From Raillietiella orientalis (taxonomy: Eukaryota): a DNA stretch of 64,000 bases. Positions 5,882 to 57,500 of the stretch are shown here, in pieces (position 1 is the first letter of the stretch; each line of letters begins with the position of its first letter). Below the pieces are notes generated by a model. It ran no database searches, was not told where the DNA came from, and was given only the letters and a program-made list of their open reading frames with translations. The position numbers and the translations under genes were made by a program. The stretch covers positions 2,728,001 through 2,792,000 of the forward strand of contig JAYWIR010000029.1 of NCBI GenBank assembly GCA_036172245.1, given 5' to 3'.

Positions 5882-5894
5882 TATTAATGTAGAA

Positions 5895-8800
5895 ATGGAT
5901 CTTGATATACCATTACCAGAAGAATGCTCATCTAGATTTTCGATGGATGCAAGTACTTTGGAGGAAAGTTCCTTGGATTTTTCAGATTCCAAGTTAGCTC
6001 AAGAAAAGTCAGCTAATTACTCATATACTACATTAGGTGAAAGTACTCAGAGAGATAGCACTGATGATACCTCTGAAGCTGATATAGGTTATGATGAACA
6101 AGAGGAACAACAGTCAATGCTGGAAGATGCCAAGTATTCACCAAGTTGTATGTCTGAAGATAGTGATGATTACAATCATGAAGCTAAAATTGAGACTGCA
6201 GGCACAGTTCTTCCTCCAATACCAATGATGCCTTATACTTTAATGGCTGAGACCCCAAAGATTCGTCCTCCCATTAAATTTTTAGCCAAAGGGCCTGTAT
6301 TAGGAAAAGAACAAGCAAAAAAAAGACTAATGGCATTTACAATGGCAAAACAAACAGGACCTGGAAATATCAAATCTAGACTTAATAGGACTGAAGATGA
6401 ACCTGTGTCTAGTGATGATAAAGCCAATTTAATGAAAAATCAGCTTCGTGAGGATACAAGAGACAATGTTCGTAATATTGCTGGAATAATGCAAGAGGAA
6501 TTGAAACTTAAAGAGCAGCTAGCTCGTCAGAGAGCTGAGCAAGAAGCACGTCATGAGGCCATTAGAGCTGAATTACACAGAGGCAGAAGAAGAAGGAGAG
6601 GCCCAAGCCCTTTTTATGGCAGACATAGAGGTAGTCACCATCAGCACAGCAAAGATAGAGAGTATCATAGAAATTGGGAAACAGGTCAAATGAAAGTGTA
6701 TAAAAGAGAGAAAGATGCAGATGGTGATTATAAGAAGGACACTTCGCAAGAATTTTTTGAAAACAAAGATAAGAGAGCTATGTACAATGAAAATCGGTCC
6801 CATAGACGAAAAGACATGGAAAATCGCTTTGGTCGCAGTGACCGTAGTTATGGTAGGAATAGAGATGATAAAAAACATAGAAATTTTTCTGAAGATAGTA
6901 ATGCAGAATTGTTCATAGCCAAGGGCGTTCATGGAGAAGAAAAACCTTTTCCACGAATTATTGTTCAGTACACACAAACAAGACCACGCCTTTCCTATTG
7001 CCCCAATCCAGATACGTTTCAAGAACCTCAAAATTGTGAGCCACCTGTTAGAATCAGCAGTGATAATGAACCTGCTGCTCTGCGTGCTTTGCAAGTACTA
7101 TATGAAAATGCTGGAGAGTGCTCTGAAACAGATGATGAACACTCAAGAAAGTCTGTACCAGAATCTGAAGAACAGTATTATGGTGTTGAATCTAAGACTG
7201 AGAAAAACTTAGGTAGTATCAATTCGAAGGACATGAAGCTTGATGCAGAACTTACTGTAAAGTCACGCTGGGATTCTGACTCAGAGGAAAAGTTCAAAGA
7301 GAAGGAAGCATATCCAGCAGTGTCCCAAAGTTTGCCTTTGACATTGTATTCACCTGAAAGTTTGCATGCCCTTGAATCCCCTGAATCAGTGAAATCTCAA
7401 AATGTCAGCAGTTCTGCAGCTCTTGATGATCTTTCCAAACAAGAAACAACTGCTGGGGAATTGGAAAATGAATATGAACGTTTCTTGCAAGCTGTGAGTG
7501 ATCCTTCAAAGGAAAATAATGACAAGCAACTAACTTATGTTTGTGAACAAACATCAGCTACAAAATCACCAGTGCATTCAAGCAAAATGTTAAATGCAGC
7601 AATTGTAAATATAGATGAAGCAGATTCTAGAAAAGTAGATATTCATTATGAGATCAAACCCTGCCCAGTAGATAATCATTCATCATCAAGCTCCAGTTCT
7701 GAGAGTAGTGATTCGTATTCAGAATCTAATGAGAAATCTCAGAAACGTCATTCAAGCAGACATAAAAAATATTCAAAAAGGCGTGCTGCCGATAAACATA
7801 AATTGAAAAAAAGGAAAAAGAAAAAGCGAAAACACTCTCATCATCATCACAAAAAAAGAAAATCTGATGAAGATGATAGCGCTGGACCTGGCCATGGTAC
7901 TAGTAGTGAAACTCCTTCAGAAAGAGGGCACAAACATTCTTCAAAATACAATACTCGTAAACATTATAGCTCTAGTAGTAAAGGTAACAGAAGCCATTCA
8001 AAACATAATCAAGATGATTTAGAATCTCAGAGTTTAAGGAGTTCTAATGCAGAGAGCTATCAAATGTACGCATATTCCGAGAAAGCAGGTAATTGTAAAA
8101 TGGAGAAACCATCCAACTTTTATTCCTTTGACAAGACTCATTTTTTCGTAGAATCAATTGGGTCAAGAAGTGCTTTTGTAGAAACAAATCACAGTTGTGA
8201 TTCCAATGATAATTCCGATGTGAATTCTCCAACAGCACGAAGTAAATCTGTTACTTGTTTTGATGAAGTTAAGCTGGGAAAACCTTGGTTTAATAACTCA
8301 CGTAGTTGTGAACCTGAAATGAATACCCAGAGCCAATTTAGAAGAAGTACATTAAATTATTTGTTGCAAGATGTTGCAGACTCATGTACCCTAAATTTGA
8401 ATCTGAATACTGAATCCTCTGTTCGTGATTCTCTTTCTTCGAATTTTCAAGGTATTATATCAAAAGAAAATTGTGATGTTATACATGCGGAATCATGCAC
8501 AGCTAGCATAATTGATCGTAATTCTTCTGTTGCTAAAACAAAAAAATCCGGGTACGAAAATGTTTTATCTACGGATTCTTTATCTAGTTCATTAGATGAT
8601 ACTCATAATCCATCGAATTCAAAAAAAGAAAATAGCAAAATTTGTTATGCAGATGACGAGTTAGATTCAAACGAAACCGCTGACACTGATGTTAAGTTCA
8701 ACATGAAAGAAAGCGTTCCAAGTTTTGACGATCAAAAAAATGTGCATGAAGATTCAGAGCCTTCTTCAAGTCGCACTGGTTTTTCTGAATCTGAAGAGAT

Positions 8801-11622
8801 AAATGCTTGTGCTTCTGGGTCGTGTAGCTTCAAATTAGGTACTAAAAATGAAGATAGTTTGCAACAGGTGGTTCACCCTGAAACTGTGGTGAAGACTGTA
8901 GAGTCAGAAAGTTTTAAAAGTCTTAGATCGGCAGAATCACAAAATTTTCCGTTTGCTGGTTTTGCAAACTTTTCCCAGTTACGCAGCACGGATGGTACTG
9001 CTGTCAATGGACGATTGCTAGGAGGTGGTGTTCATGAAATATCACATTGTGCCAATGCTCAGGCCTCTGTTGAAAGTCGTTCTCAGCAGCAGATGGAAGG
9101 TGCATGTGATATGGACATATCTGAAGGAGAAGAAGATGCACCTGAAAAAGAAGATGCACCTGAGGAACCGAAAGTTCCAGAAATGTCCAAATCGGAAGTA
9201 ATTCTTCCCCCCAAAGTGGAGAAATTGTATGTCCGTTGGCCTGGACTTTCAATTACTTGTGGATGGCCAGCAGATGCATTTTTGCCCGGAAATACGGAAT
9301 CAGATGTTGAAGAAACTCCAGATTCTCAGAATGTTGCTGCATGGCAACCGCCACCACCTGGTGTTCCTGATGGTGGTTGGGATCACGAGCTAACAGTGAC
9401 ACCTCAGCCTGCTCAACCAGCTATTGATATGAAAGCAGTGATGGAAGAATTAGGAAGGCGTGCTTTACGGATGGGTCTTACTAAATTCCGTAATTTTTCC
9501 CAGCTCAGTGCAATGGAAGGAGGGACTGTAGATAAAGAAACAGAATCTGTGAGCTCGTCTAGTCTTGCAGGTAGAAAAGAAAAAAGACGTAGTAGGAGCC
9601 CAAGATCAAGAAGCGGGAAAACACACAGAAGTGAAAAAAGAAAGCGTTCAAGATCAGGAAGTCGCAGACGCTCGACTTCACGTGGGCGGAAGAGATCGCG
9701 TTCACGAAGTCGCAGACGCTCTCGGTCATGGAGTAAGAGAAGGTCGTATTCAAGGAGCAGAAAACGATCTTCATCAAGAAGTCGTAGACGTTCGCATTCC
9801 AGACATCGTAAGCGATCTTCATCTCGCACTAGAAAACGATCACGTTCATACTCAAGAAGTCCACATCGCAAAGCAAGTCGCCATAGCCCGAAGAAACGGC
9901 GAAGATCGAGAAGTCCAAAAAAGCATTCAAGTAAGCATGGATCTCATAGTCCACACAAGAAGAAATCGAAAAGCCCAAGTAGAAATGATAAAAATTATAA
10001 GTCTCCTCCAGAATCACAAGAACAGAACACCGAGCAAGAGTTCACTAATTACAGCACTTCAAACGGTGACAAAATTTACGAAGGACCCGAACCACTTATG
10101 TCTCTCGAAGTGGCCAATCCTCAGGTTTCGGATTCTTATTCAAGACCAAACACTTTTTCGTATCCTGAACAGCCACTGACTTCGGAGTCTGAGCTTCCTG
10201 GAACTTATGCAGATGTAGGTTCTGGCGCTTATGTGGAACCGGAATCCGAATCAAATTTTCAAAGTTGCAGAAAAGATGATACAAAGGTTCCCCCAGACAC
10301 CCAGCATTTGCAAACAATAGCCAGATTGCAAGCACTTGCTGGAATGCCTTCTGCTGAAGGTTCAACAAAACTCGACAGAAGAAGGGAACTTAACTTAGGA
10401 CAGAAAGCAGACAATCGGAAACCTGAGTTCCTCAGCTATGGAGCCGACATGCCACTTCCAGGGCAGAAAACAACCAGTGGAGGTCATATACCTGAATCAT
10501 TGGGAAGTGGCCATGCTTTTAATATCAACTCTGATCAATTTGAGATTGGTCTCAAGCCAGAATTTTCAACTCAGAACCGTAAAGCAGAAAAACCTAACTC
10601 TGAGTCTTCAGTACTTTGTGATGGGTCAGACCTGCATACTTCCATGCTTTGGCAGGAACTATCTGGATTTGAAACAAAAACTGAACATGACAGTTCTCTG
10701 ACAAGACTGAAATCATCAGCTAATGCAGGAAAAGGTGATCAAGTTAATCCCGTTAATCAAGATGATGGAATGGAAACAACTAACAGAATGGAGTTGTCGA
10801 TGGCAGAGATGAAAGACGATCTATCGAGTTTGGAAGGTTGTTTGGAGGGTTCAAGTGCTGGTCATTCTGAAGCTGTTTTGCATCCATTGCAACGTCTGCT
10901 TTTACATGCTCGTACTCCTGTAGAGCGCATGCAAATCGTCAAGCAGGCAGTTGAACTAAAACGAGCAGCAGCAAAAGTACTTCAGGCCAAAGCACCTCAA
11001 CCCTCAGTCCAAAAATCCAAAAAAAAGAAAAAGAAATCTAAACGAGAATTACTGGAGTCCATGGTGGAAACATCACAAGTGGAAGGTGTAATTACCAAAT
11101 CAGATGAATCTTCAGGTCCTCTTGTAGAAGATGGAAAATTTGTGCAGCTTCCAGCATCTTTCGAAGCAGTGCCCCAGAGGGAGGCTGTATCAAGCAAGAG
11201 TATTCTGCTTCAGCCAGGCCTACGGTGAGCCTGCTGAGCTCGTGCAGCCCCGGTGCCAGCCCTCATGCATCCGCAGGAGCAGGGGGGATGTCCACAAGAG
11301 TGTCCAGTTTGCTGATGGTGTGCGACCTGGTGAGGGATCTTCCTCATCTGATGACCATGATGACCTCGCTTCACCCCCACCACCCCTTTATTGTGAAGCA
11401 TATGGCAAGTACAAGGTCGGCTTAGGGAACTGCCTCGCCGCACTCGGACAGAGTGCAACTCTTCAGGATGAGGACAGCGATGAGGAAACAGAATTGCCTC
11501 CATCTCCTCCTCCTGGAAGTCCCCCACTGTATGCATATTTCTTCTACCCTGCATCTTGCCGTCTGGATGCAGCTACGCTACCCTCCTTTGATCGACTGTT
11601 TGCAGATGCTGGATACGTTTAG
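5895..11622 (+). CDS. Large disordered Ser/Arg-rich (RS-domain) nuclear protein, probable splicing-associated PP1 interactor. Coding exons: 5895-11224, 11277-11415, 11467-11622 (the last intron is in-frame and could be retained)
   Basis: The 1777-codon ORF ends in CG|GTGAGC. A 52-nt intron (11225-11276, ...CCGCAG) joins it in frame to SRGDVHKSVQFADGVRPGEG. Other features: long RS dipeptide tract (~9587-9980), poly-Lys/His NLS-like tract (~7800-7860), KSRWDS motif (7260-7277), RVxF-type KSVQF, stop TAG at 11620-11622. No folded domain or orthologue name recognised. Confidence 0.85.
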
Positions 11623-25438: not shown

Positions 25439-27666
25439 ATGAAAACAGTCGTCGCCTTGGCAACGTGCTTGCTGGCCGTTCTTCACGGATTCACGGAGGC
25501 GCAGCTGACTCTGCAGAGAGGTCGGTGCGGGACGAGCGGGAGGGCAGGGAAGGTGGAAAGAGGGGAAAAAATCCTCCGTCCCCGCCTCAACCCACTATCA
25601 CTGGTGCCGCTCTGCCACCGGGATGACACCTCGTCACCTCTCCTGGACCGAGCGTCCGCCCAGTGAGGTCCCCGCGGGTATGAAAAGGGACCAAGAGGAG
25701 GAGGAGGAGCCTCCCCGACGGCAGAGGGGTGGCGATCCTGCGGTCGCCCGGTTGGCGAGGGAGGGGGTGGGTGGGTGGGGGAGGGAGCCAACCCTTCCGG
25801 CCCCCGTCCCACGCCACCTCTTTCGCGTGCCGGCCGAAGGGTTTCCTTGCCCTCTCTTGGAGACGTCCTATCCCCAGCTGACCCTACTCCTCCCGCACCA
25901 GATGGGGAAGACGTCCTGCGCTCCACATATAATTCCGCAGTGGACCGAGTGCTGGGCAGCGCCCTCTACGCCTTCGGCGCGAAAGTGCTGGGCAGGAACC
26001 TGACGGACGCACTGGTCCCGTTCGCTCCGAACTTCATCCCGAGCTTCCAGGAGATACGCAAGCAGCTGCCCCCCGTGCAGATCAAGGCCGGGAGGATCGT
26101 GCTCTTCGACAACACCAAGTACGGCAAGAGGGACATCCAGAGCAGGGACGCTCGCTCCTGCGTGACCGCCGATGGGAAGGCCGGCACCTGCACGGACCTC
26201 AGCAAGTGCTCCTCGCTGCTGGCGGACCTCGCACTTCTCCGTCTCTCCGTCTGCCTGAAGAGCACGTTCACGCCCGGAGTCTGCTGTGGTACTAGGTGAG
26301 AAGAGGTTTCCGCGGCTCCCACAGGAAGCGACCGTACCCCCTCTAATCCTCCTTCTCGTCCCTCTCGTCTTGCCCTCCTCCTCTTTCCCGACCCCCCCCC
26401 CCCTGACCTTCGCTGCGCCCCGCGCTGTCACGGGTCTTCCGTAGCTCCGAGGAAGGCAACGACCGCCCCCCCTCCAAGGCCGACGTCACGACATTGCCTT
26501 CCCCGCCTATACAGCCGGAGTTCCTCGGCGAGGAAGCCACCCCGTCGCCGCTGCCCCCGGTGGAGCCCTCCGGAGGAGGAGGCGAGGGGGAGGGAGGAGA
26601 CCATCTCCCCTACCAGTCCTACCGTAAGCCTACGCGCCACGACGCGACCCTCCGTCCTGACCTCCGCCTTGCAGCTTGCGGGGTTCCTCAGATCGCCATG
26701 TTCCGGATTATCGGGGGCTCGGAATCCGCCTCCGGGCAGTGGCCCTGGGCGGCAGCCATATTCCTCAGGAACAACCGGAGGACAGAGTTCTGGTGCGCTG
26801 GCAGCCTCATCAACGAGCTGTACGTGCTGACGGCGGCCCACTGCACGCGGGATAGCCGGCAGAGACCGTGAGCGCACCGGAGGGCCTCCCGAGGGAACTA
26901 AAAAGCTCATGCGTTCCCTACCCTTCTGGCTGGGCTCGCAGATTCGCCCGGTCTCAGTTCACCGTCGTGCTGGGCGCCAACGACGTCAGTCTGGGTCTAG
27001 CCGGGCTCCAAGGCAGGTCGTACCGCGTCAGGGATGTTCGGGCGCACCCGCTGTTCAGCAACCAAGGGTTCTTCAACGACATCGCCCTTATGAGGCTCTC
27101 CCGACAGGTCGTGTTCAGCCCCAGGATACTCCCGGTGTGCCTACCCGAAGGCCTACCCGATACCCACAGTCTCCTGGGACAGTACGCGACGGTCATCGGG
27201 TGGGGAACCTTGGATTACGGTAAGAAGCCACGATGGGAGGATAGGGGGGGGGGGGGAACGTCCATGCCTCCTCCTTCACCCCTTTTTCTGACCAAAGGGG
27301 GCAAACCCACGTCCAGGCTGCACGAGGTCGCCCTTCCCCTGTGGAGCAATGAAGGATGCAGCCAGGCCTACCTGCAGAACATCGGTGCCAATTTCCTCTG
27401 TGCCGGCATGGTGCAGGGAGGGAAGGACGCTTGCCAGGTAAGGAAGACGTCCCACACACCCCAATCCGCCACCACCCGTCGATCCGGGGAGGCACCGAGG
27501 ACCCTTCCAGGGAGACTCCGGGGGACCGCTGATGCTCCCCGTGGACGGACGGTACACGCTGCTAGGGATCGTGTCCTTCGGCAACCGCTGTGCGGAGCCC
27601 AACTACCCCGGGGTCTACACGAACGTGGCCTACTATCTGGACTGGATATACCAGAACATGTTCTAA
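25439..27666 (+). CDS. Secreted clip-domain serine protease (proclotting enzyme-like, trypsin specificity). Coding exons: 25439-25520, 25902-26295 (alternative acceptor 25878), 26445-26623, 26675-26867, 26942-27219, 27298-27437, 27511-27666
   Basis: Signal peptide [21 protein letters not shown]. Six-Cys clip domain [17 protein letters not shown]...C...GVCC, then a Pro-rich linker. Activation site R|IIGG. Catalytic triad TAAHC / NDIAL / GDSGGP, with S1 Asp in GKDAC. All introns are GT-AG with matching phases. Confidence 0.95.
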
Positions 27667-28083
27667 GCAGGGAATCAAGTCACACCGGGCCCCACCCCGC
27701 CCACCCTCCCTTCCGGACGCCGGCTGCCTCCGAGCTCGCCTATATGCTGCTGCACGCCCTCCCTGGGCGACCTGCTCTCCGCACCAGACTGGATCCGACT
27801 GGAGCGCTCCCCCCATGCGAAAGGGGAGGAGCCTCGCCTGCTCCCCTTCGTCCCCCTGCTCCCTCGCCATCCAGAAGACCCCCTTCGGCAGGTGGAGGAG
27901 GAGAGAGCACGAAGGCAAGGAATTCCGAGATCCACGGGCTGAACGTGTGACTCTCAGCGCGCCATAAGTGACCCCGACCCTACCAGCATCGCGCCACTCC
28001 TGCTCCCAGCGCGCATCGGTCGAGGAGTGGACGTGAGGGGCAGGAGGAAGACGTGCCGGTCTCGAACGTCGCGCACTCTTGCA

Positions 28084-40029: not shown

Positions 40030-43000
40030 GTGTACAGTGACAGTGAACAGTGCAAAGTGAACAGTGCACTGACTCCAGCAGCCCTCCCGGTCAGTGCAGC
40101 GAACAGCCGGTAGCAGCACCATGGTGGAGGACTCGCATCCCCCGGCGGTGTTAGTTTCGTCCGCAGGAAAAAGGATGTCAGCAGAGATGGATACCCGGAC
40201 CGCATCGACTCAGCCGACGACACGCACCGAGGTGACTGCAGGCGCGCAAGCGGTCACCCCGTGCGTGTCGTCGTCGGCACCAACGTCACATTCCTCGAAT
40301 GGGAACGTGACGGACACGGCGCCTTCTTACGCGACGGTAGCAGTATCCGCAAACGCACCCGTGCCCGCCATGAAGAAGCGCAGTTACGCTCAGACAGAGG
40401 TCATGGTAGAGTCGACGAGCCAATGGTGCAGGCGGGCCCGGAGGTGAAGTCAATTCCATTCCAAACCGATCGAATCCGTCTCCATAATATCAAAGACGTA
40501 TACCTGACCCTGAACAGTGAAAAGTTCCCAGGGTGCAGAAAATTGTCCCATGTGCAAGCGGGGAGTTCACTGTCCACCAATCATCGATGTCTTTGTGGGA
40601 CAAGGCGTAAAAATTGCTGGAAGAGCGTGCGGGGAATCGGCGAGACGTCCACCACGATGGTGTCTCTCAACGGAATCAGCATCCGTGCAACCGAACAAAC
40701 GGTGTGGCAATTCCTTGTGTAATACGAAGGATTGAAGCATGTGAGATTTCGAAACCACATGGGCAGAGTAATCTCCAGGGAAAGAATTGCGAAGATGCAA
40801 TGGAAGGCGGAGGCGAGGATGCGGGAAGAAGTGTATATCGATGCACGTCCCGGTCAAATGTCGGAAACAACCGCTATCGTGCACCGACTGGAAAACGTAC
40901 GGCCATTGGGAAGATACGTGACCCCGATCTCGGTGCTACCGGTGCAGCAAGCAAGCGCACCGGATCAGGTCATGCAATACACCGGAGACTTGCGTGTTCT
41001 GCAAGGAACCCGGCCGCGCCAGGAGGAATTGAAAGAATACGCGAATTGGAGAGAAAGGAGAGTTCTCTCCCCGGTCAGGGAAAGAGCCAAGGAAACGCCT
41101 GAAGTGGCCAGACCCATGCCAAAGGCGGTAGTACTAGCCGCGAAAGACGGCTTTCAAGAGGTACGCATTCAAAAAGGAAACAGGAGGATGCTCACGCAAG
41201 AGTAGCAGACCTCGAATGAACAAGGAGAGAAACGCGAGAAAGAACAGACGGAAGAAGCGGAGCTCCACCCCGGACACACAGGAAACCGTGCCGATCGCCG
41301 AGGAAGCGACTCAGCTGCGAGATGAAGTTCGTCATGGAACAAGCAACGAGGACCAGGGACAAATCCTGCGCTTCATCTGCGATGTCACGGAGGACGTTGA
41401 CGCAAACATGGTGGAAGACTCCCAACGTATTTAAGCTGGGCAGAGAGCTGTTGGACTTCGTTCTGCGTGAGAGTGCGCCTCGAAACTCCCCTACGCAAAG
41501 TGATCGCCAAGACCGAACGACAGACCGATGAAACCGAATTCACAGACCTGAGAGAGTCCGAGAGTGACGTTGGAAGTGAATTAGCTCATGTCCAGAGGCA
41601 GCAACGGTCTTCAAGGCGGAAACGCAACCAGGAAAGCCAGAAGCCTATGGCCTCCGTGTCCACAGTTAGGAGGATCCCAATAGTCGGTTGAGACTTGAAT
41701 GGACAGGAAAGTAAAGGATCTTGCGGTCCATCGCACGCCAACACGTAGTGTTCCTTCAGGAGACCCACGACATGGGCCACAAGATCGATCCCGACTTGGA
41801 ACGACGCCTAAACGTCCAGCTGTTCGACTACGCGAGACAGAGGGAGACCCAGGGTGTGGCGACCCTCATGCAGAAGGTCCGTGCCCACACTACAGCATGC
41901 TGGATCCATTCTGCCCCATGTCCTGGTCGAAGAGTCGCCAGTATACGGATGTCCTGGTCCGCCAAGGTTCATCTACTCTTGGTGAACCTGTACGGACATC
42001 ACAAGGGAAAACATGAGAACGCGGAGGCGATACGCCATGTGCTGCGTCAGCAAGTGTCGCCAAAGGACTTCCTCATCGTCGTGGGAGACGTCGACATCCG
42101 GGACGAGATCACCCGCTTCCAGCACGCCAAAGGAAGACGGGCGTATCGGCAGCTGTCCGAGGAATTTGGACTGCTGTGGCTAACTGCAAGCCACAAGCCG
42201 ATTGACCAAATCCTTCACAGCTTCAAACTGAAGAGTCACATGGAGGGTTTTCGCGACACGCAGACTCTGCCATCGGAACATGCACTGGTGCGATTGTCCC
42301 CAAAGACAGAAAATCCCCACCGAAGGAAAGGCACTAGAGCGGCGTTCATCTGCATGCTCTCCTGGTTCGAGACGCTCCTCTGTCACCAGGCAGTCATCGA
42401 GGCCACTCTGTAAGGCACCATCATTTGCAAAGTCGCGGGCTGGGACAGCCTGAGGCACCGAGTCCACGTATTGTGCAACATGAAGCACCGGGACGAGAGG
42501 ATGAGGAAGGAAGCGTACCGAAAGCACAATATCGAAGATGGCTCCCTCTCCAAATACTGGGAAAAGCACGAGAGTCGAAACGTCTTCACAAATGGAAAAG
42601 GGGAAGTCCGCGTGCTGGAAAAGAAGAATCTGGCGACAGACAGTTTGTGCATCCAGCACGACGGCCAAAGCCGGCAGATGTAGGAGCAGGAAGCAGCACA
42701 GTACACTCGTGTGGACTCCAACAGGAAGCGGAGCGACAGCCTCTGGAATGGCGTCCTACTTCCAAACGTACTCTTCTCAGCGGCCTTCTGCAGAGTGATC
42801 AAGGACAGCCGGCGAGAAAAGGACAAGCGGCAACGCAAGACAATCATGGGAAACTACAAACTAAGGGTCGGACTATAACCTCCATTCCATCGATAGGAAG
42901 AAGGAGGTCCCGGGATGAAGTCGCTGCGACACGCCGTGGAGACCACGGACGTGCGACAACTACAGGACAGACAAATGGGACGACTGGCCATACGAGGCTC

Positions 43001-43725
43001 GGAGAGCCTATTCGTTGTGGTTCCACAGCTCGAGAGGCCTGATAGTCATCAGGCCTCTCGAGCTGAGGATGGATCACCATCGAGCCCACATGGAGGCACT
43101 GGTGCGGAAGCGCCAGCTCCAAATCATGCCTAGAAGCCAGGAACTCTAGGAGAGAGGAATCGGTCCTAGTAATCCCCTGGTTGCTCCCAGTCCCAGGTGA
43201 CACAAGGAGCTCGATATGCCGGAGGTCCAGAGTTACTTTAAGAAGAATAGAGTGGCGGAGACGCGAAGGCTACTGCGACCACTCCCCGTGTGCTGGAGTA
43301 CATCGACAGGAAAGTTTGCCCACAGGACGCTCAAAATGTGGAAAAGCCACAGGAACTACGCGTGGCCCAGGATGAACAAGGAGAACCTTCGTCATCTCCT
43401 ACGTGAAGACCATCAGACAAGCCCTGGAATGACCTTCTAGGGGATGCCGTTGGCGATTGGAAGGACCTTCTAGAGGAGTGGACGGCCGCCAGACACCCAG
43501 GATGACCTCCGAATGTAATACTGCGAGGGAATCTGGATTGGGACCAGGATGAAATACTTAACGGGAACAGATGAGGATTGCAGGGCGAAATTATCACCAT
43601 TGCCTCCATGGTGGCTGTTCGGCAGCCCTATCACCCTTCTCAGGGTTTGCCAGTGTCGATGCATCGTGGGACATGTCACGATGTGAAGTCTCGTGTCCAC
43701 GTCACCACCTGCCCTGCAATCCTCA
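40030..43725 (+). mobile_element. Degenerate Tx1/L1-like LINE: ORF1, APE endonuclease and C-terminus, with the RT core apparently deleted and the 3' end inverted
   Basis: CAGTG-rich 5' leader. ORF1-like SYATV and KRSYAQ, and VSLNGISIRATEQTVWQFLV.YEG. APE motifs FLQETH, VNLYGHH, IVVGDVD, IDQIL and SEHALV at 41721-42300. Post-RT GGPGMKSL (cf. GGLGL). No YADD found. Confidence 0.8.
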
Positions 43726-43779
43726 ACTAATAAATTTTGCTTAGAGATACTGGAGAAGAAAGGCAGATCAGTATGGAAG

Positions 43780-44320
43780 GGAATTCTAAATGAATGCATC
43801 ATGAAGGACTCCGTTGTGCATAGTGGCAGCTGGTCAAGCTATTCATCATCTTTGCGAGTATAGATGATGTCATTCGTTCGTTAGTCTACCCGACTTACAA
43901 TTTCCAACATGCGGTTATTCATGACCATGCACGATCGATAGAATCTGCATGGGCAAGATCAAGAAAGAATTAAGGAAAAAGAATGAAAGCACCAGTCCTA
44001 CTTGGGAAGCTGCCTTGGAGAACTCTCACTCAAGATGAAAACAAAAGATATTCCTGTGGAACCACTTTCCCTATATTAATTCACTCGTCCACATTCAGTT
44101 CGCAAGGGTTGACACCAATTTTTAACTTCCATAAATCCTTCGTCCTTCATCCAGCCGTTGCCTCAAACTTCATAGAGAACCACATCCTCCAGTTCATCAG
44201 AAGGACACACTTTCACTAGAAAACCGGAGACTTCCTTTCAGAGGATACCCATTCGGGGTGGAGAATGTTGCAAATGCTCTCAACTTCTGGAAACGGTCTC
44301 AGCAATCGGCATTCTCTGAA
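43780..44320 (+). repeat. Diverged copy of 61840-62421, in inverted orientation
   Basis: Both translate to MKDSV.H.GSWSSYSS...QDE.KRYS.GTTFPI...SNFIENHIL. Patchy similarity continues ~200 bp further inward. Confidence 0.9.
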
Positions 44321-44739
44321 AAATGAACTCAGTTTTCACGAACACGCTGTGTACGGATGGAATCGATCGGCTACACAGTTCATGTCGTCGCCACGTGGAA
44401 AATCCCAGCTTCGGTGACACGTTCCAAGGCTTTTCCAAGCCACACTTTGCTCCAGCCATGCAAATTGACAACGTTCTCGGTTTGTGAAGCCAGTGCCCAT
44501 TACGAGGTCCTGCAGGGTGTGTGTGTAAAAGAGCGCATATTTTGTTCCATCCTGAGGATGGTTTTCTCTCTCTTTCTCATTCTCTTCTTCCGAGGGCCTC
44601 GCGCACTGGAAAAAATGCAGCGTTATGGATTCCATCTGCTTTCCCCAGTCCAAAAATTCAGTAACAGGAGATACTGGATAGGGGCAATTTTATTCAGTCC
44701 TCTTTCACTGCTTTCCGCATTACATTGAACTGAAGTCAG

Positions 44740-46200
44740 CCGACGATCCTGGAGCAGAAGTTGGGAAAACGCAGCAGCCGCTGCGTCCGGCGAAACCGCA
44801 GCACCCTGACCAAAGCACCGGATTTGCGAGCAGGCAGGGTGTCGCCGAGGCGGTTGGTGCCTCAGCTAACAGCGGCTGATTGTTCTCTGGGAGATGAGGC
44901 GAAGACTATCGAGGAGTTGGTGCTTTGCCGCTGGTGGCAACCAGGGGCGTTCAGGGTGCAGCGGAGCAAACTGCAAGTGGGCAGCCTCCGCTCAGGCTGC
45001 CACCACCGTCCGTGCCGCAACTGTCACCTGCCCGAGGTGCCCACTTGCGCAGATGGCCGCCGTTCCGCCGCTACGGCCACCTACGGTTGCACAGCCGCCC
45101 TAATCCGTCCAGTGGCAGCTGTCTGTGGAAGAAATGCTGCTCTCCCGGTGGCGAGATGCACTGTCGGAGGTCGGGGCTTCCTGGATCGGCGCCGCTACTA
45201 TTGGAACTCTCTCCAGCACGGGAGAGAGGCCAGGGTTGCATGCCAAGCCCCAAGCGACGTTCCCGACTCCTTTCGGTCGGCACAGATGCGTCTCCTCACG
45301 AAGGGAGGGGACTTACGGAACCTCAGCAACTGGCGTCCGATCACCGTGTTGTTGCGAAACTTTGCTCAACACGGTAAACGTGTTGAGCAAAGTTTCGCTA
45401 AGTTGCTGGCGAAGCTTTACTCGGAGAGATTAGGGCTCTTGGCGAAAACCTTCATTAGACCGGAGCATAATACTTACCGCTGTTTCCGGGCGGAGCATAG
45501 ACGCCAATCTGCTCTTCGCGAACACCTGGTTCGAGTTTCAGAGGAGAAGAGCAAAGGACAAAATCATGGTCGGCACCACGATTTCCGGGACGTCCACTGG
45601 TGGTGGGCAGGATGGCCGGGAAGGAGAGGGGGGAATTGCGGTCGCAGTCGACTTGCGCAGAACATTCGATTTTCACCCGGGTTTCGCCAGGGCTTTTGTT
45701 GAAAACAAACTTTAACAAAGAAGTGCTGTGGCTGGACCAATGCTCCAGCCACGCACGAAGATACACAGAGCCTTCCGGGTTACCGGTTCGCAGACCGATA
45801 CGATCCACCACGGCAGCAGGGGGAAGGGGGAAGAAACAAAAAAACTAAACAAAAAGAAAAGAATACTTGGGAGGGTAAGGGAAGGGATCACTGCTGCTGC
45901 TGGGGCCGTTGCATCCTTCTCAGGATGCCGGCAAGCTTTTTCGGTATGCTTGGATCCAGGTGGGGCCATCGCGACGCCCTCCTCAAAAATTCGGCGGCGC
46001 GCTGGATGGCACCTTATCGCGAGGTCCTCCCTTAGCCTTGGTGCAAGCGACGACGATCCCGCGAAGGCAGCACAGGGCTGCTATCGAGGCCGCAGGCCGA
46101 AGGGCGTCGGCAACGAAGAGGGCTTTTAAGGCGTCCCTGGGGTTGCCGCAGGGGATTCCGATGGCCACGGCAAAGAAAACCGACGATTACGTCCATACAG
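44740..46200 (+). mobile_element. Non-LTR reverse transcriptase fragment (L1/Tx1-like)
   Basis: PDSFRSAQMRLLTKGGDLRNLSNWRPITVL...KLLAKLYSERL...FIRPEH (45260-45470) matches the conserved LINE RT N-terminus. Boundaries approximate. Confidence 0.75.
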
Positions 46201-46929
46201 ATGAAGCCAGGTTTCATCTTTCATTGAAGATGATGCGACTAGTGTTGAGTGTTTCAGGAAAGAGTGCAAATAAATTCACCCCACCGCTTGTCGGATTTGG
46301 GGACGTTGTATGGCTATACGCGGGAGAAAAAATTCTCTACATCTATGTGATCATGCGGTATACATACGACACGAATACAAAAGGAACAAAAAGGAAAAGG
46401 AAGCAATCTCGTGTCAGCAATAACTTGTAAGGAAGATCACGATGCTGATGAATAGTAATGCATCCGCATGGCCAGAGTTCGTTGAAGTCACGTCAAAACA
46501 GTGCTGCCATTTACGACCGGCCCACATTCTTCTGGGGGTGTTCTTCAGCTCCGGAGCGCGGAGTGCACGTAACGCCGTCCGCAACAGTGTTGTGACCATC
46601 CACGTAAAGAAACCGACGTCTTTTCAGATGTTTGTAACCAGGTCACGCCGCCACGTTTCTCAAGAAACCGGTTAGGAACACCGTTCGCATCCAAGATATA
46701 ACAAACAAGAGGGGAGTCCGCCGGCACGCAGGCCGGGATGACGGAAGTTGGGAACGGGGCGGGGGATAGAGACAACAAAAAAAAGTTGACTGTGGCGGGT
46801 TGGGGCAGGGGTCTTCGGGATGGCTCCGGGAGGCACTGGGTAAGACAGGGAAGATTCGGAACGAACGAGGAGAGCGGATCGCAAAAAACAAATGAATAAA
46901 ATCGATAACTCAAGGGAGGGAGATGGCGA

Positions 46930-52026: not shown

Positions 52027-54333
52027 ATGGCCATGGACGAGAAGGATATTAGCGGCGAGTTAATGTGTGCAATGCTAGAAGAAAGAACAGCTGAAGTGAG
52101 AAGCTTACTCGACTCTTATGGTGTGTCCTCCGCGTCAGAACGGTCATACAGATATGCTTTACTTCGTGATGCTGTGGACAATGTACGTGCAGAGACTGCC
52201 AAACTGCTTTTAAGATTTGATTGCGAAATGAACAGCCCCAATCGAAAACGTGATACTCTTCATTTTGCTGCTGAAAAAGGTTACATAGAGATTGTGGAGA
52301 TGCTTTTAGATAGAACTGTTCCTATTGATGCTGCAAATCAGGATGGCAAAACTCCACTTCACTTGGCAGTTGAAAGTGTGGAAAGGGATGTTGAATTAGT
52401 TTCAAATCGCACAGAGGATGTTTGCTCTAGAAACAGGCACAGTACAACAACCCCTTTGTCCCTTGCTACTAGAAAACATGCAAAGGTTGAAGTTGTCGAA
52501 TTGCTTTTAAGTAGAGGTGCTTCTGTCGATGCTAAGGGGAGAGATGGTAGAACTTCTCTTCACATGGCAGCGGCAGGAGGGTATCTACAGATTGTTGAGT
52601 GTCTTTTAAGATATGGAGCTTACGTCGACCCTGCATGTACCCAGTACTTTCGGACTCCATTGCACGTTGCTGTTAAGGGAGGCCATGAAGAAGTGGTGAA
52701 GGTACTTTTAGAGTGCGGAGCTAACGTTGATGCTCAAGATAAGGGTGGTAAAACGGCATTACACTTTGCTGTTAAGGGAGGCCATGAAGAAGTGGTGAAG
52801 GTACTTTTAGAGTGCGGAGCTAACGTTGATGCTCAAGATAAGGGTGGTGAAACTCCTTTACGCCATGCTGTTAGAAGAGGATTCTCAGTAATCGTTGAGC
52901 ATCTTTTAAAGCATCGTCCTGATGTGAATAACAAAAGTAACAAAAGCACGCTCAACGCTGCAGTGCATCACTATGGGACAGAATATGGCAAGATCCTTCG
53001 AGCTCTGCTTCAGTATGGTTTTACTGTTGATCCAGAAGATGTGAATGATGGTGAATTTCTGCATGCCGCTGTTAAGAAAGGTTATTCGGAAATTGTTGAA
53101 GAACTCTTAAAGTGCGGTACTGATGCTGGCATGCCGGACAACTCCACACGAGGTTATACTCCTTTACATGTTGCAGTCAAAAGCAAACAGGCGGAGATGG
53201 CCAAACTGTTGATAAGTTATGGCGTTGATGTAAATGCTAAAACCAACGGTGGCGTTACGCCATTATCTTTTGCTGTTCGAAATTTCGACTTAGAAATTAC
53301 CAAGCTACTTCTTACTCATAAAGCGAATGTAAAAACTAATCCTGAATTACTTCACATTGCTGCTAGTGAGGGCTGCTTAGAAATCGTTGAAGTTCTTTTG
53401 CAACATGGTGCCGACGTTAATGCTAGTGATCAGCATGGAAGAACGGCGTTGCATTTTACTTCCTTGGGGGAGAAATTCCGTCATCTCAAGTGCAGTGGAG
53501 ACATTGCCAAATTGCTTTTGAGTAGAGGAGCTGACGTAAATGCTAAAACTCACAAGGGTATAACACCGCTTCATGATGCTGCTGGAAATGGTCAACTAGA
53601 AGTTGTTAAGGTTCTCTTGAAATTTGGTGCCACCATTGATTCTAAGGATGGGTATGGTAGGACAGCCCTTCATATTGCTCATAAACAACGACATGCAGAA
53701 GTTGTTGAAACTCTTCTAGAAGATGGCTCCCATGTTAACATCGCTTCTAAAAAAATTTTACAGCATTTGAATTTGCTATGCATCATACCAGAAAATGTGT
53801 ATAGTCGTCACGCTACCATGGTGATTCTTATGATGATGAATATCTTTATTCTCGTGGTGATGATTCGTGCTTAGAAACTGTTGAAATTCTTTTCTGCCTT
53901 CGGTATCAGTTTTCGAATTCAATGTTTCAGAGAAATAGAATTCACGAAGAGTGAGAAGATTGGTAATTCGAACGCCTCATTTTATGACACCTTGACAAAA
54001 TATACAAACCAGTTAGTAATGCTCTTGAGAAATGAAGATACAGTGCAAGTCCTAGGATCGGATGATCGCCAAATGAAATTCCCAATATACGCCAGTGTGA
54101 TGAATAATCGTTTTAGGAGGGGTCAAAGAAGGAAGGAATTGCTCGAGCAAATCCATGAAAACAGCCACACCTTTCCTGCGTTGCCGCGTGACTGTACTGA
54201 ACACGTGCTCAGCTATCTCAGCGATGAAGATTTAAGTATTTTAATAGATGCCCATCAGCCTTCTATTGTTTGTAGACATTATGCTAATGCTGGCGATGTG
54301 GCAATCACTTCAAGTATGTGCGAACCATCATAG
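52027..54333 (+). CDS. Intronless ankyrin-repeat protein (~16 ANK) with a C-terminal PRANC/F-box-like domain, Wolbachia/Rickettsiales effector-like. Disrupted in the linker, so either a truncated gene or a young pseudogene
   Basis: 615-aa ORF with repeated TPLH.A...G..E.V..LL..GA.V units. The same-frame ORF 53881-54333 has SFYDTL...KFPIYAS.....FRRG.RRKELL...FPALPRDCTEHVLSYLSDEDL, a PRANC/F-box-like pattern. Apparent 1-nt loss in the A7 run at 53749-53755; TAG at 53872-53874. Confidence 0.9.
52667..52848 (+). repeat. 99-bp-period tandem duplication of one ankyrin repeat (83 bp identical)
   Basis: 52667-52749 = 52766-52848, encoding AVKGGHEEVVKVLLECGANVDAQDKGG twice. Confidence 0.95.
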
Positions 54334-54549
54334 TGAGGCAGAAGAGTAGAGCAGGAAGGCAAGCTGTAGGTAATGTTTGCTTACCAATTTAAGGTTTCAA
54401 TTTAAGGAAGTTATTTCATTTACAAATTTCACCCGGAGTTTCTCATTTTTTACATATATCATTTTGTGTTCATTCCAAAACAGGGTAAATGGTATTGTCC
54501 TTCATTTTCTTAGAGGAATTGAAAAACTTGAAACATGATGGTTAGGACG

Positions 54550-57500
54550 AAACACCATATGGAATAGACGTATAGATAGGTCTTGTGCAGGGGTGGTACA
54601 TTCCAAAATGGGTTCTTTTTAACTAAGAGTTCTTTAGGCTTCGGGGAATCCCTTTTCAATTTTGGTCTTGGAGAGAAATAGTAGAGAGTTACACCAATGA
54701 ATATTGCGAGTCAACCTCCGGCCTTGGGTGCATCAGCACCAACGGCGTTTTCAAAATTCCTCATGGCATCGGCGCAAAGGTGCTCGGATTGCCACCCACC
54801 CGTACAGAATGGTTGCATTGGAGCGTTTCTAGCAGTTTTTCCCCCGCCATATCTTCTGGAAACCAGGACGCAGACAGTCCTGCATACGCGGACATATTCG
54901 ATGCATCACCGGAGCTGATCCAACCAAGAAGAGAACAAAAATAGTTTGATGAATCACAAGCATTGCATACTGCTGAAAAGAAGCTCACGGAAATAAATGC
55001 CCCCAAACACTAAGGATACTTCGCAGTAGATCTGAGAACAAAATATACAGTGTATACTTCATTGACCTGTATTCAGTTCTTTAGAAAGACAAAAGTCTCC
55101 AGGGATGTCCATCCGGACGCTTACGAGGTCTCAGAAAAGGAGACTGAGGATATTGCTGAAGCTGCAGCCCGAAGATTTGCTCAGGCTATTCGGCTAGAAC
55201 ACTCTCGTATGCATGCGTGATTGCGTGTTCAGGAGAATGTGAAGTGACATGTTTTAGAAATGCTGAATGGAAAGCTGCCGATTGGGGGAATCTGAAATTT
55301 TGTCACCACGTCTTATCCACCAATTCAGTTGTATTCTGATGCGATTGCGGGGATTCCAAGGAACACCTTGCAGCATCACAGGTCGCCTGTTTATCCACAT
55401 GTGTAAATTTCGGATGAATTTCTTGAAGGTGGATCGTGATCCCCCCAGGATCGAAGCGTTTTGTTCTGTGAGCGGCATAAGGAACACACGGTGCTCGCGT
55501 AAAACTGAAAAATCGGAGGACACGAAAAAGTGTGCAGAACACGTTGACCATTCCATGCGGTTGCCTAGCGAGCAGACTTCCGTCAACTGAGCTGTGGCGC
55601 ATTTTTCCATTTCTTAGATGCACAGTGCCTCCTCTCCTCGTTAAGGCATGGGTTCTCGCCTCCTCTCTTCGCAACGTGTGAGAGTGAATCTGCACCACGT
55701 CTGATGACGATCCTCGTGCACATCTCCTCGCCTTCAGCGCGCGTCCCCTTGTTTCAGTTCCTGGTATCGGCTCACCAGATGAATGCGAGTTCGGCCATTG
55801 ATCCTGGCATAATCCCGAGCAGGTTGCAAAATTTCAGGAAACCGTAGACAATCCGGAACTGGAGAACGTTCGAGATTTTCTTAGCAGGCGCAGGATGTTG
55901 GCCACTTTTGCGTGGTTCAATGCAATGGCAGTCAGTCAAGGTTAATAGTTTAGGCGTGTGCGCGCATGGGTCCTTTTGCACGATCCCCTCCAGGATTTAC
56001 GCCACTTCATCTCATGCCCTGCCCCCTGACCACTCGGACTCTCATAACCAATGGGCAGGATCGGAGTTTCTCCGTGTATCAAATGAACACAAACGTGGCC
56101 TCTTATTCCAAGAGTATGATAGCATGTTCTCCCGTTCAAAGACTTGAAGGAGCTGTCGGAAGGAGCATAGGACTTGGGCGTGCTGAAAGGGAGCGTCGAT
56201 AAACCCGGAATTGGTCCTGCTTTGAAGGGAGAAAATGGAAATGTAGGAGAATGAAGTGGTGAATTCACAAGTGGATGCCTCCCTTCTTTCGAAGAGGAGA
56301 TTCTGAAACCAGAGCCTTAATCCAGAGATGATTCTTCCGTGATGATCTCCACGCAAGAGAAACGCACATTCTTCTGTTGGCGGTTATGGTGATGCTCACC
56401 GGTTTTTGCCTTTCATGTCGGTGCAGCTGCCGTATTGCAGCAGCAAGTGATTTTGTGTAATTTCGTGTTTCCGTCGGCAAAATTGATGATCAGTGCGAAT
56501 AAGAATTTTTTTTTTTTTTAAAAAAAAGGGTCAACGAGAACATTTTCTAGACGCAATGTTTATCTCGTTACTTGGGAGGAACAAGGAAAACGGTGTGAGC
56601 ATCACACCTACAGATTCGCCTTGAATGCTTTTCAGCCCTTTCTTTGGTTTAATAAAGAGAGATTGATTTCTCGTCAAGAGACTTTTGCAGTGTCCACCTG
56701 GGAGCATCTCACTCTTCACCAGTTGGTCTTTCAATGTTACCTCGCCCCAAATCTTCCACGGCTTAGAAGTGCGGTTTGCCGGTTTGATCATTTGGTCATT
56801 TGACAAACTCGAGGATTCGATTCTCCTCCTGTAGGAGCAGCGCATCTGCACCGAGTGCGTCTCCCTTTGTTTTTCTTGAGTACTCAACTTTGATGGATTA
56901 TATTTGCTCGTTGCCTCTCCGTGCTCATAAATTCAACTGAGCTGTGCTACTTGCAGTTGGAGGTGTAATGCAAGTTCAACTGCTTGATGATGAACGAAAT
57001 GCAATGTTTCTCATTGCAACACATTCCGCAAGAATGAAATTCGCGTTACGGTTCTCAGTGTTTACAAGAATCCGTTGTCTCAATCATCGTGGTTTCAGCT
57101 GTTCCATAAAAAGTAAGCCATGTTTTGCACCTCATTGGTAAAATGCAACGACCAATTGTGGCGATGGTATTTTACCAATCGCTTTAAAGCAAGCGAAAGC
57201 GAAACCGAAGCGACACAAAACTTCTTTCGAGAGTATCCCAGCTGACTCCGAGATCCTTTAAGAAGTCGAAGGAAGGATGCACTCAGAGGACACGTTTTCA
57301 GTTGAACTCAAGCTGTTACTGCTGAAAGGGAGAAATGACGCTGACCCCTGTGCCATAAGGTATGTGCTTCATTTCGAAGGTAACGGCAATGGGAGCAGCC
57401 CATGAAGAGGCAGAGCTCTTGTTGGAATATGTATTGATGAATTTTCGCTCTTCAACCTTTCCGAATATAAACATCCCCAAAGTGGTCAGCGTTCCTTCAG

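Follow-up and report, generated by a model that had tools for sequence, protein, structure and literature searches.

A probably decaying nuclear copy of an ANK-PRANC gene of the phage WO type

The ANK-PRANC Locus

The window, by which we mean the entire 64-kb stretch of DNA that was analysed, carries on its forward strand a gene of 2.3 kb that begins with ankyrin (ANK) repeats and ends with a PRANC (F-box-like) domain (Table 1). Its start codon lies directly 3' of a stop codon (52024-26) and opens a frame of 615 codons (52027-53874), and the N-terminus encoded by the ANK half aligns with the N-termini of the homologues from Lasius. The motifs FPIY..LP.DC..VLSYLSDEDL are located within the PRANC half (53911-54330), which also contains an internal ATG at 54019 that opens an ORF of 104 codons. 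A second copy of the gene was not found elsewhere in the 64-kb window. A first-pass annotation had read the gene as one intronless frame of about 770 codons, but this frame is not open: codon 616 is a TAG, and the frame in which the homology continues contains a further TAG.

Table 1. Features of the ANK-PRANC gene, with positions counted from the first letter of the window
Feature	Position	Strand	Description
ANK-repeat half	52027..53750	+	frame 1, own ATG; 13 PF00023 stretches, E 2.6e-106
Tandem-duplicated 99-bp ANK unit	52658..52855	+	2 copies, 95-96% identical
A7 run	53748..53754	+	first lesion; homologous frame switches from frame 1 to frame 2
Linker remnant	53751..53893	+	frame 2 only: KNFTAFEFAM...SYDDEY...ETVEILF
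TAG in homologous frame 2	53802..53804	+	second lesion; inside the contig of run X1
TAG closing the frame-1 ORF	53872..53874	+	codon 616, after 615 codons
Third lesion (approximate)	53893..53910	+	about 25 codons gone, return to frame 1
PRANC (F-box-like) half	53911..54333	+	frame 1, 140 codons and stop TAG at 54331-33

Chromosomal Surroundings and Base Composition

The surroundings of the gene are eukaryotic. Upstream of it, at approximately 25.7-27.9 kb, lies a CLIP and trypsin protease gene that is spliced and runs over several frames, which bears out the earlier remark that the neighbouring genes contain introns. CLIP and trypsin were the only families recovered when 18 ORFs of the window were scanned with Pfam; 15 of the 18 gave no match, and no bacterial family was found. 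Among the same 18 ORFs, hsp20, recombinase and other bacterial families were likewise without a Pfam match, and the locus does not show the prophage WO neighbourhood in which a recombinase, hsp20 and an ANK-TPR gene lie close by. A search of the flanks for repeats or ends of transposable elements returned only one inverted pair of 30 nt (49796/56518), which is 77% complementary and was taken as a chance match.

The window gene has a GC content of 43.3% and 40.7% and a GC3 of 32.5% and 40.4%, the flanks have a GC content of 44.8% and 45.7%, and the bacterial orthologues have a GC content of 33.9% and a GC3 of 21%. In GC as well as in GC3 the gene stands between the bacterial copies and the flanks. 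With this intermediate composition and an intron-bearing CLIP/trypsin gene in the same 64 kb, the gene belongs to the nuclear chromosomal DNA of an arthropod, and its placement in host DNA by the first-pass annotation holds. It is scarcely credible that endosymbiont contamination or a chimeric assembly has been mistaken for a chromosomal copy. Nothing speaks for such an error besides the bacterial relatives of the gene, whereas it is contradicted by a lone gene with no bacterial neighbours in 64 kb, by a GC content of 43% as opposed to 34% in the bacterial copies L001 and L017, by the disabling lesions that the gene carries, and by identities that do not exceed 52% in any of the bacteria sampled.

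Disruption of the Linker

All three lesions of the 2.3-kb gene are confined to a linker of about 160 bp (approximately 53748-53910). Beyond position 53750 or so, the homology runs in frame 2, which obtained the top score against 8 of 8 homologue linkers; this linker score was reached by 4 of 500 shuffles. The remnant in frame 2 is the counterpart of the stretch NxTPLDFAM...YDSDDDYY...EVIAEIL in the relatives, and a conserved block that follows in these relatives (HIVKMKTANLYVS..EIS), approximately 25 codons long, is absent before frame 1 resumes at 53911. The locus does not contain a single continuous reading frame for ANK and PRANC, as the frame changes, the TAGs and the missing block interrupt it. 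Because of the frame changes and stops in the linker, the two parts cannot be translated together as written, and the three lesions therefore leave as sole product from the ATG an ANK protein of 615 residues without PRANC, the end of which is an out-of-frame tail of about 40 residues. Taken separately, both halves remain open and can still be recognised, the ANK half over about 575 codons and the PRANC half over 140.

One contig of run X1 reproduces positions 53794-54058 gap-free and with one mismatch (54012), spanning both TAGs and the deletion site; the run is possibly derived from the same sample as the assembly and is hence not an independent confirmation of the lesions. Run X1, which is possibly DNA (share 0.31), is made up of contigs 150-285 bp long at low depth and leaves the bins 54322-55500 almost uncovered. 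The first lesion sits in a homopolymer, which is a typical site of sequencing errors, and lies outside the X1 contig.

The lesions could be viewed as assembly errors, or as lying within a new linker intron that is spliced out, in which case the gene would encode an intact ANK-PRANC adaptor. This is consistent with the confinement of the lesions to about 160 bp, with the position of one of them at the A7 run, and with the fact that the ORFs of both domains are intact and in the same frame 1. As judged by eye, there are also GT..AG pairs that keep frame 1, with a donor at about 53799 and acceptors at 53909 or 53930, the second of which (tttcag) is preceded by a pyrimidine-rich stretch. We nevertheless consider an intact adaptor distinctly improbable, since the gap-free X1 contig includes both TAGs and the deletion site, the candidate donors that preserve the frame deviate, again by eye, from the GTRAGT consensus, and intact relatives are present in their own loci as single uninterrupted ORFs.

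The 615-codon ORF might also be expressed and selected as a truncated, functional protein that consists of ANK repeats without PRANC. The well-formed ANK repeats, which score very strongly in Pfam, have stayed open over about 575 codons, the 99-bp ANK unit was duplicated recently, and some of the Nasonia CLANKs have been reported without sequence beyond the ankyrin domains. The out-of-frame tail in which the ORF terminates argues against a functional product, as does the PRANC part, which is equally open, a state that recent death of the gene would leave as well. On balance we regard a selected ANK-only protein as unlikely.

Independently of these readings, the clustering of the lesions in about 160 bp, with domains that are otherwise open, is unexpected under long neutral decay. 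Such a pattern is compatible with a recent death of the gene, with a single complex event, or with excision of the stretch from the mRNA.

Domain Assignment and Predicted Fold

The ANK repeats noted by the first-pass annotation are real and resolve into 13 Pfam stretches, with a score of 341.8 bits for PF00023 against a cutoff of 21.1. The C-terminal PRANC domain (PF09372) that it had proposed is also recovered, if marginally: the 140-aa piece 53911-54333 scores 25.8 bits at a gathering score of 25.8, while the longer 152-aa piece 53875-54333 scores 25.5 bits and remains just under this cutoff. Within the alignment A1, 11 of 11 members match PRANC, with a best E of 8.3e-10.

An AlphaFold model of the C-terminus, computed from 52 sequences, has a pLDDT of 81.7. 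(A first model from 11 sequences was discarded at a pLDDT of 52.6.) Its best matches in BFVD are the C-termini of avipoxvirus ANK/PRANC proteins (prob 1.00), the named entries among the top matches coming from avipoxviruses and other poxviruses, and the comparison with the avipoxvirus PRANC ends gives a TMq of 0.58-0.65 at an rmsd of about 3 Å, where all compared structures are predicted and not solved. Judged by these models, the C-terminus is predicted to share its fold with the PRANC ends of poxviruses.

Scores for an F-box in the C-terminus (PF00646, PF12937) were below the gathering scores, at 13.7 bits against 20.5 for F-box and 13.1 against 24.3 for F-box-like; at E<=0.01, F-box was matched in 2 of the 11 members of A1 and F-box-like in 1. 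Foldseek returned no match of the model in the PDB at E<=0.001, a wide VIA-align search with the model had a best Z of 5.0, which is within noise, and a profile search of PDB sequences yielded chance-level matches only (best E 0.018, colicin E1).

Relatives and Phylogenetic Placement

The C-terminus is 57% identical to the proteins P0001 and P0002 of Lasius platythorax, which are encoded by nuclear ant genes, and 58% identical over 115 columns to the fragment P0133. No relative more than 58% identical to the window copy was found in any search, and the donor lineage is for this reason unsampled. The Wolbachia protein P0053 is 52% identical in the C-terminus, and for phage WO the value is 51.8% across 96% of the C-terminal query. 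Phage WO accounts for all 3 matches among 50,697 phage records, and the matched gene, gwv_1092 of WOVitA1 (KX522565.1), is annotated as 'ankyrin repeat with PRANC domain protein' and is homologous to the window copy across linker and PRANC. Membership in a family with ANK repeats and a C-terminal PRANC that also occurs in Wolbachia prophage WO is thereby corroborated. The earlier statement that the gene closely follows Wolbachia-type proteins stands as clear homology, with 52% identity in the C-terminus, but not as close identity. Among viral contigs (IMG/VR), 438 pattern matches contained no relatives.

In two quick trees, both unrooted, the window copy forms a clade with three Lasius rows (SH-aLRT 98), in which its branch measures 0.85-0.89 compared with 0.06-0.18 for the Lasius proteins. 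In a careful tree, a long branch of Ischnura joined the Lasius/window group (92/96, bootstrap unsettled), which we treated as long-branch attraction; after this artefact the tree was rebuilt without 11 long rows. The window copy lies, in an unrooted tree, within a clade of 44 rows that has a support of 94 and contains no known bacterial member. The wider subfamily is a mixture of Wolbachia and insect sequences, in which the known bacterial copies gather in a single tight cluster amid diverse insect branches; copies of Temnothorax and Eurosta are nested within this cluster on very short branches. More distant PRANC domains of the Wolbachia family fall outside the subfamily (in unrooted trees). 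The subfamily is carried by 2 of 98 Wolbachia-family genomes (E ~1e-98), any PRANC match being present in 22 of the 98, and is distributed patchily over insects, with representatives in ants, bees, parasitoid wasps, a lacewing, flies, a weevil and a damselfly.

At conserved columns of the family, the window copy differs at 7 of 45, whereas the median row differs at 2; of 60 rows, only one diverges more than the window copy. The same degree of divergence (7 of 41) is seen in a Lasius paralogue that appears intact, and the divergence of the window copy is therefore no proof of relaxed constraint.

These results divide the lateral transfer that the first-pass annotation had proposed. The mixture of Wolbachia and insect sequences in the wider subfamily agrees with it, but the nearest kin are nuclear genes of ants and not of bacteria. 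The phylogeny of the PRANC half is similarly two-sided: a vertically inherited arthropod clade outside bacterial and viral sequences had been named as an outcome that would speak against transfer, and the 44-row clade comes close to it, while placing the window copy together with the WO cluster is allowed by the AU test (not rejected, p 0.119).

An alternative reading of the trees is a vertical insect family, in which the window and Lasius copies represent an ant lineage and insects were the source from which phage WO acquired its gwv_1092-type gene. The 44-row clade argues for it, as do the far greater diversity of the family in insects, its presence in so few Wolbachia-family genomes and the position of the bacterial copies as a single cluster amid insect branches. 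Passages of PMC5062602 moreover describe the PRANC of phage WO as having greater homology to invertebrate than to bacterial sequences, and discuss transfer in both directions. Against it stand the patchy insect distribution, the Temnothorax and Eurosta copies inside the bacterial cluster, which amount to recent moves from bacterium to insect, and the more distant Wolbachia-family PRANC domains outside the subfamily, though the trees are unrooted. The GC3 of the window gene (33-40%), which is lower than the 45% of the flanks, is likewise what would be expected from an AT-rich donor. We consider vertical descent in insects rather unlikely.

Interpretation and Significance

We consider it probable that the locus is an old, decaying nuclear copy of an ANK-PRANC family with representatives in phage WO (gwv_1092 type). 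The bacterial members of this family are located in the eukaryotic association module of Wolbachia prophage WO, and the family may ultimately have originated by transfer between Wolbachia or phage WO and insects. From its reading frames, the window copy appears to be a pseudogene.

Recruitment of SCF is established for the ANK-PRANC proteins of poxviruses and Orientia. By analogy, intact relatives in the WO/insect family would hold a target with their ANK repeats and engage Skp1 of the SCF through the PRANC/F-box-like end. As written, the window copy is unable to act as an SCF adaptor because its ANK and PRANC halves are uncoupled; its domestication as a ubiquitin-ligase adaptor, which the first-pass annotation had entertained, is not supported in view of the frame change, the stop and the frame-changing deletion that part ANK from PRANC.

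ANK-PRANC genes common to phage WO of Wolbachia and to insects are a textbook case of gene traffic between endosymbiont phages and animals, and some copies have reportedly been wired into the development of the host Nasonia. On our reading, the locus adds another decaying example to a type of Wolbachia/phage WO gene transfer that is already on record, and it involves no new mechanism. Its main use is as a single case of how ANK-PRANC transfers decay. If orthologues were found, it could help to put a date on the family's ant lineage and could inform the direction of transfer. If the family were vertically inherited in insects after all, the gwv_1092-type gene would be an animal-to-phage capture, and the locus would belong, as a dying copy, to the family from which that gene was taken.

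Comparison with Known Systems

The gene gwv_1092 of phage WO and the copies P0053, L001, L017 and L082 have the same two-domain layout as the window copy, with a long linker and a PRANC of the same subfamily. The Wolbachia and WO copies are intact ORFs of 946-952 codons, whereas in the window copy the linker is disrupted and the ANK repeats are fewer. In the bacterial L017 and L001 as well as in phage WO (KX522565.1), the gene order is ANK-TPR, ANK-PRANC (946 aa), hsp20 and a 362-aa ORF, and in L017 and phage WO a recombinase comes next; the window copy stands alone in eukaryotic DNA. The proteins P0001, P0002 and P0003 of Lasius platythorax share with the window copy the derived motifs SEKIGNSN, GQRRKEL and VLSYLSDEDL, but they are annotated as uninterrupted and retain the linker block (HIVKIKTANLYVS...) that is missing from the window copy.

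The ANK/PRANC proteins of poxviruses resemble the family in the order of ANK repeats and C-terminal PRANC, although their sequence identity is only 16-25%; the long conserved linker before PRANC is a trait of the WO/insect subfamily, unlike the poxvirus proteins. Further parallels are catalogued ANK transfers. The ant catalogue of PMC13320244, in the main text of which PRANC and Lasius have no occurrence each, counts 245 Wolbachia-derived ANK transfers across 45 species, and PMC6161386 reports that ANK-PRANC genes have repeatedly been transferred into insects, namely Nasonia (CLANKs), Pseudomyrmex, Ceratina, Microplitis and Bemisia. Like the cases set out in these catalogues, the window copy is an intronless Wolbachia-type ANK gene in an arthropod chromosome, and the families described there duplicate and then diverge after their arrival (PMC13320244; PMC6161386).

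Structure of the Locus

On balance the locus probably belongs to the phage-WO-type ANK-PRANC family as an old nuclear copy that is falling into decay. The first-pass annotation had placed an ANK-PRANC gene at 52027-54333 in one open frame of ~770 codons; both domains stand, the open frame does not. Straight translation from position 52027 reaches a TAG at codon 616, and under the standard code, with ATG required as start, the region splits into two ORFs of the same frame (see table). The 615-residue part holds 13 Ank stretches (PF00023, E 2.6e-106), and the part after the stop scores 25.5 bits (152-aa piece) or 25.8 bits (140-aa piece) against Pfam PRANC, whose gathering score is 25.8 bits; F-box (13.7 bits) and F-box-like (13.1 bits) matches in this part were both under threshold. 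A stop at 52024-26 lies immediately 5' of the start ATG and the N-terminus aligns with those of relatives, so that the copy spans the whole gene. Within the ANK half, a 99-bp unit is duplicated in tandem (52658-52855; copies 95-96% identical).

Relatives were collected with the C-terminus and, separately, with the ANK half as queries. Their linker, from the last ANK repeat to PRANC, is conserved (...GSDINI.SK.N.TPLDFAM...YDSDDDYY..RGIC.CEVIAEILKHHIVKMKTANLYVS..NLLS....EISDFQ..CE.EIASMKSEK...). Frame 1 of the window copy tracks this linker only as far as ...NIASKK, at an A7 run; the next homology, KNFTAFEFAM ... SYDDEYLYSRGDDSCLETVEILF, lies in frame 2, which scored highest against the linkers of 8/8 homologues when three frames were compared by Smith-Waterman (narrowly for homologue P0014, 25 vs 24), its score against the Temnothorax protein P0012 being reached by 4 of 500 shuffles. 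Frame 2 itself contains a TAG, and the relatives' block HIVKMKTANLYVS...EIS, of ~25 codons, lacks an equivalent in the window when the homologues are aligned; homology then returns in frame 1 (FRIQCFREIEFTKSEKIGNSN...). Read at the sequence level, three apparently disabling lesions lie inside ~160 bp of linker.

Features of the locus in window coordinates
Feature	Position	Strand	Detail
ANK-containing ORF	52027-53874	+	615 codons, frame 1
A7 run, frame 1 to frame 2	53748-54	+	linker homology
TAG in frame 2	53802-04	+	linker homology, X1 contig
TAG ending frame-1 ORF	53872-74	+	translation, X1 contig
Frame 1 homology resumes	53911	+	after missing ~25-codon block
ORF in PRANC part	54019-54333	+	104 codons, frame 1

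A simple pseudogene reading explains one feature poorly: all three lesions crowd into the linker and leave both domain ORFs open. This speaks for an intact gene in which the lesion cluster would be an assembly error or lie in a stretch removed by splicing. Against this, X1, the only public sequencing run holding part of the stretch (of low depth and possibly the assembly's own sample), yields a gap-free contig over 53794-54058 with a single mismatch, at 54012, so that both TAGs and the deletion site recur in it; we consider an intact gene quite unlikely. As written, the locus would encode no more than the ANK part followed by an aberrant tail; we see a modest chance that such an ANK-only protein is functional. 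The PRANC end, which one report (PMC5062602) describes in poxvirus and Orientia proteins as the link between ANK module and SCF ubiquitin ligases, would be uncoupled from the ANK module in the window copy, and the earlier suggestion of domestication as a ubiquitin-ligase adaptor is accordingly left without support.

Family and Predicted Fold of the C-Terminus

In an alignment of the window C-terminus with ten relatives, Pfam matched PRANC in 11/11 members. A fold predicted from this alignment was poor (pLDDT 52.6), and one based on 52 sequences reached pLDDT 81.7 and pTM 0.71. Against predicted viral structures the fold gave 2 matches at E<=0.001 (TMq 0.58-0.65, rmsd ~3 Å, prob 1.00), and the named rows among the best such matches were C-terminal ends of ANK/PRANC proteins of avipoxviruses and other poxviruses, whose predicted fold the window C-terminus shares. 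No solved structure was matched: a sequence profile search of the PDB gave a best E of only 0.018, Foldseek found 0 PDB matches at E<=0.001, and a wide VIA-align search reached a best Z of 5.0. Given the Pfam and predicted-fold matches, the PRANC call is sound; none of the searches of solved structures brought out a likeness to F-boxes.

Distribution of Relatives

An exhaustive profile search returned 1966 representative clusters at E<=0.001, 1036 at 1e-10 and 105 at 1e-30, none exceeding 57-58% identity to the window C-terminus. The best full-length matches were the Lasius platythorax proteins P0001 and P0002 (57%). Named relatives came from ants (Lasius, Temnothorax, Pseudomyrmex), bees (Andrena, Halictus), parasitoid wasps, a lacewing, flies, a weevil and a damselfly; one was bacterial, a Wolbachia protein (P0053, group A, from Andrena carantonica; 52%). 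A pattern scan of prokaryote species representatives found 3 loci. A profile search matched PRANC in 22/98 genomes of the Wolbachia family, and the window-type subfamily in only 2/98 (G001 and G040, E ~1e-98).

Phage matches were confined to 3 of 50,697 records, all Wolbachia phage WO (96% of the query covered, 51.8% identical). The WOVitA1 match is gwv_1092, annotated 'ankyrin repeat with PRANC domain protein', with the ANK-TPR gene gwv_1093 on one side and hsp20, a hypothetical gene and a recombinase on the other. Phage WO (KX522565.1, 12321-24737) and locus L017 (46-16089) have in common the order ANK-TPR giant, ANK-PRANC (946 aa), hsp20, 362-aa ORF and large serine recombinase, and locus L001 (593-5632) keeps the ANK-PRANC, hsp20 and 362-aa ORF part in unchanged order, which places the bacterial orthologues in the eukaryotic association module of prophage WO.

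The window-type subfamily occurred in 75 metagenome loci (L004-L078). Among the 18 of at least 6 kb, 17 looked eukaryotic (ORF density 0.08-0.47) and L017 bacterial (0.88), and the ANK-PRANC ORFs of five loci checked had bacterial-like GC3 (20-25%). This combination of low ORF density and bacterial-like GC3 suggests that AT-rich eukaryotic genomes carry many recent copies. Separately, two contigs of a Wolbachia assembly, L002 (1-255, equal to L080) and L003 (1-377, equal to L081), are 255 and 377 bp long with coverage ~1 according to their titles; they carry PRANC fragments, one with stops inside the match, and may be copies from the host genome that ended up in the symbiont bin.

Phylogenetic Placement

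Unrooted trees were built from the linker and PRANC region. The window copy adjoined three Lasius proteins in FastTree (193 rows) and grouped with them in a quick IQ-TREE run (78 rows, SH-aLRT 98). A very long Ischnura branch joined this group in a careful run (92/96, bootstrap not settled). With 11 long rows left out, the rebuilt tree recovered the group of window copy and three Lasius proteins (98). Its sister group (94) comprised 40 rows, from Andrena bees, unnamed proteins and eukaryote-like metagenome loci, and a tight bacterial WO cluster lay outside, accompanied by Temnothorax and Eurosta on very short branches. In the quick IQ-TREE run the linker and PRANC regions of P0012 (Temnothorax longispinosus) and of P0008 and P0010 (Eurosta solidaginis) fell inside that cluster on branches of 0.05-0.10; these genes look like very recent transfers into chromosome-scale insect contigs (20.7 Mb and 309 Mb).

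The terminal branch of the window copy is long (0.85-0.89), and holding it with the WO cluster was not rejected by the AU test (lnL difference 23.2, p 0.119), so that the 132 columns are of limited resolution. Of the 45 columns that are conserved in at least 90% of 59 other rows, the copy differs at 7 and the median row at 2, and only one of the 60 rows is more divergent than the window copy; for one Lasius paralogue the figure is 7 of 41, and the divergence is therefore no proof of relaxed constraint. Since the trees are unrooted, transfer direction cannot be read from them. That phage WO acquired its copy from an insect gene family, a reading that overlaps ours on the identity of the locus, strikes us as unlikely.

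Genomic Setting and Composition

The window is eukaryotic DNA. A CLIP domain and two trypsin-domain pieces at 25.7-27.9 kb lie in different frames, which indicates exons of a CLIP and trypsin-like serine protease gene (25667-27950, +) within a 60-66% GC island (~19-30 kb) whose neighboring stretches drop to 28-32%; the gene shows the window to be chromosomal DNA of arthropod-like type, with a GC content that varies strongly. The other 15 of 18 scanned ORFs had no Pfam match, and bacterial matches were absent. The flanks of the ANK-PRANC gene held no convincing repeats, and tblastn with 12 homologues as queries found no second copy in the 64 kb.

Elsewhere, a single open frame of 1784 codons (5874-11228, +), abundant in Ser/Arg/Lys runs, had no word-index match at E<=1e-10 and only SON, NKTR or SRRM-like leads, all scoring <0.9. 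A series of 130-320-codon ORFs in DNA of 53-55% GC (40100-46400, +), four of which were tested without a Pfam match, may be a degraded mobile element.

GC is 43.3% in the ANK part and 40.7% in the PRANC part (GC3 32.5% and 40.4%), between the flanks (44.8% and 45.7%) and the bacterial orthologues (33.9%; GC3 21%). This intermediate composition agrees with a gene of AT-rich origin that has long resided in the host. Endosymbiont contamination does not fit such a composition, the eukaryotic neighbors or the lack of bacterial matches among the 18 scanned ORFs, and is very unlikely. Of the lateral transfer proposed in the first pass, family and chromosomal location are borne out by the phage WO homology and the eukaryotic window.

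Comparison With Described Transfers

Insect chromosomes are well known to carry ANK genes of Wolbachia type. One study reports 245 ANK transfers from Wolbachia in 45 ant species, with later duplication frequent and function unclear (PMC13320244), and ANK-PRANC transfers are listed for Nasonia (CLANKs), Pseudomyrmex, Ceratina, Microplitis and Bemisia (PMC6161386). The account that places gwv_1092 in the WO eukaryotic association module leaves transfer direction open (PMC5062602). Whereas the gwv_1092 type sits in a prophage neighborhood at the low GC of the bacterial orthologues, the window copy lies in eukaryotic DNA at higher GC; it adds one further ANK-PRANC copy to transfers already described, with no new mechanism.
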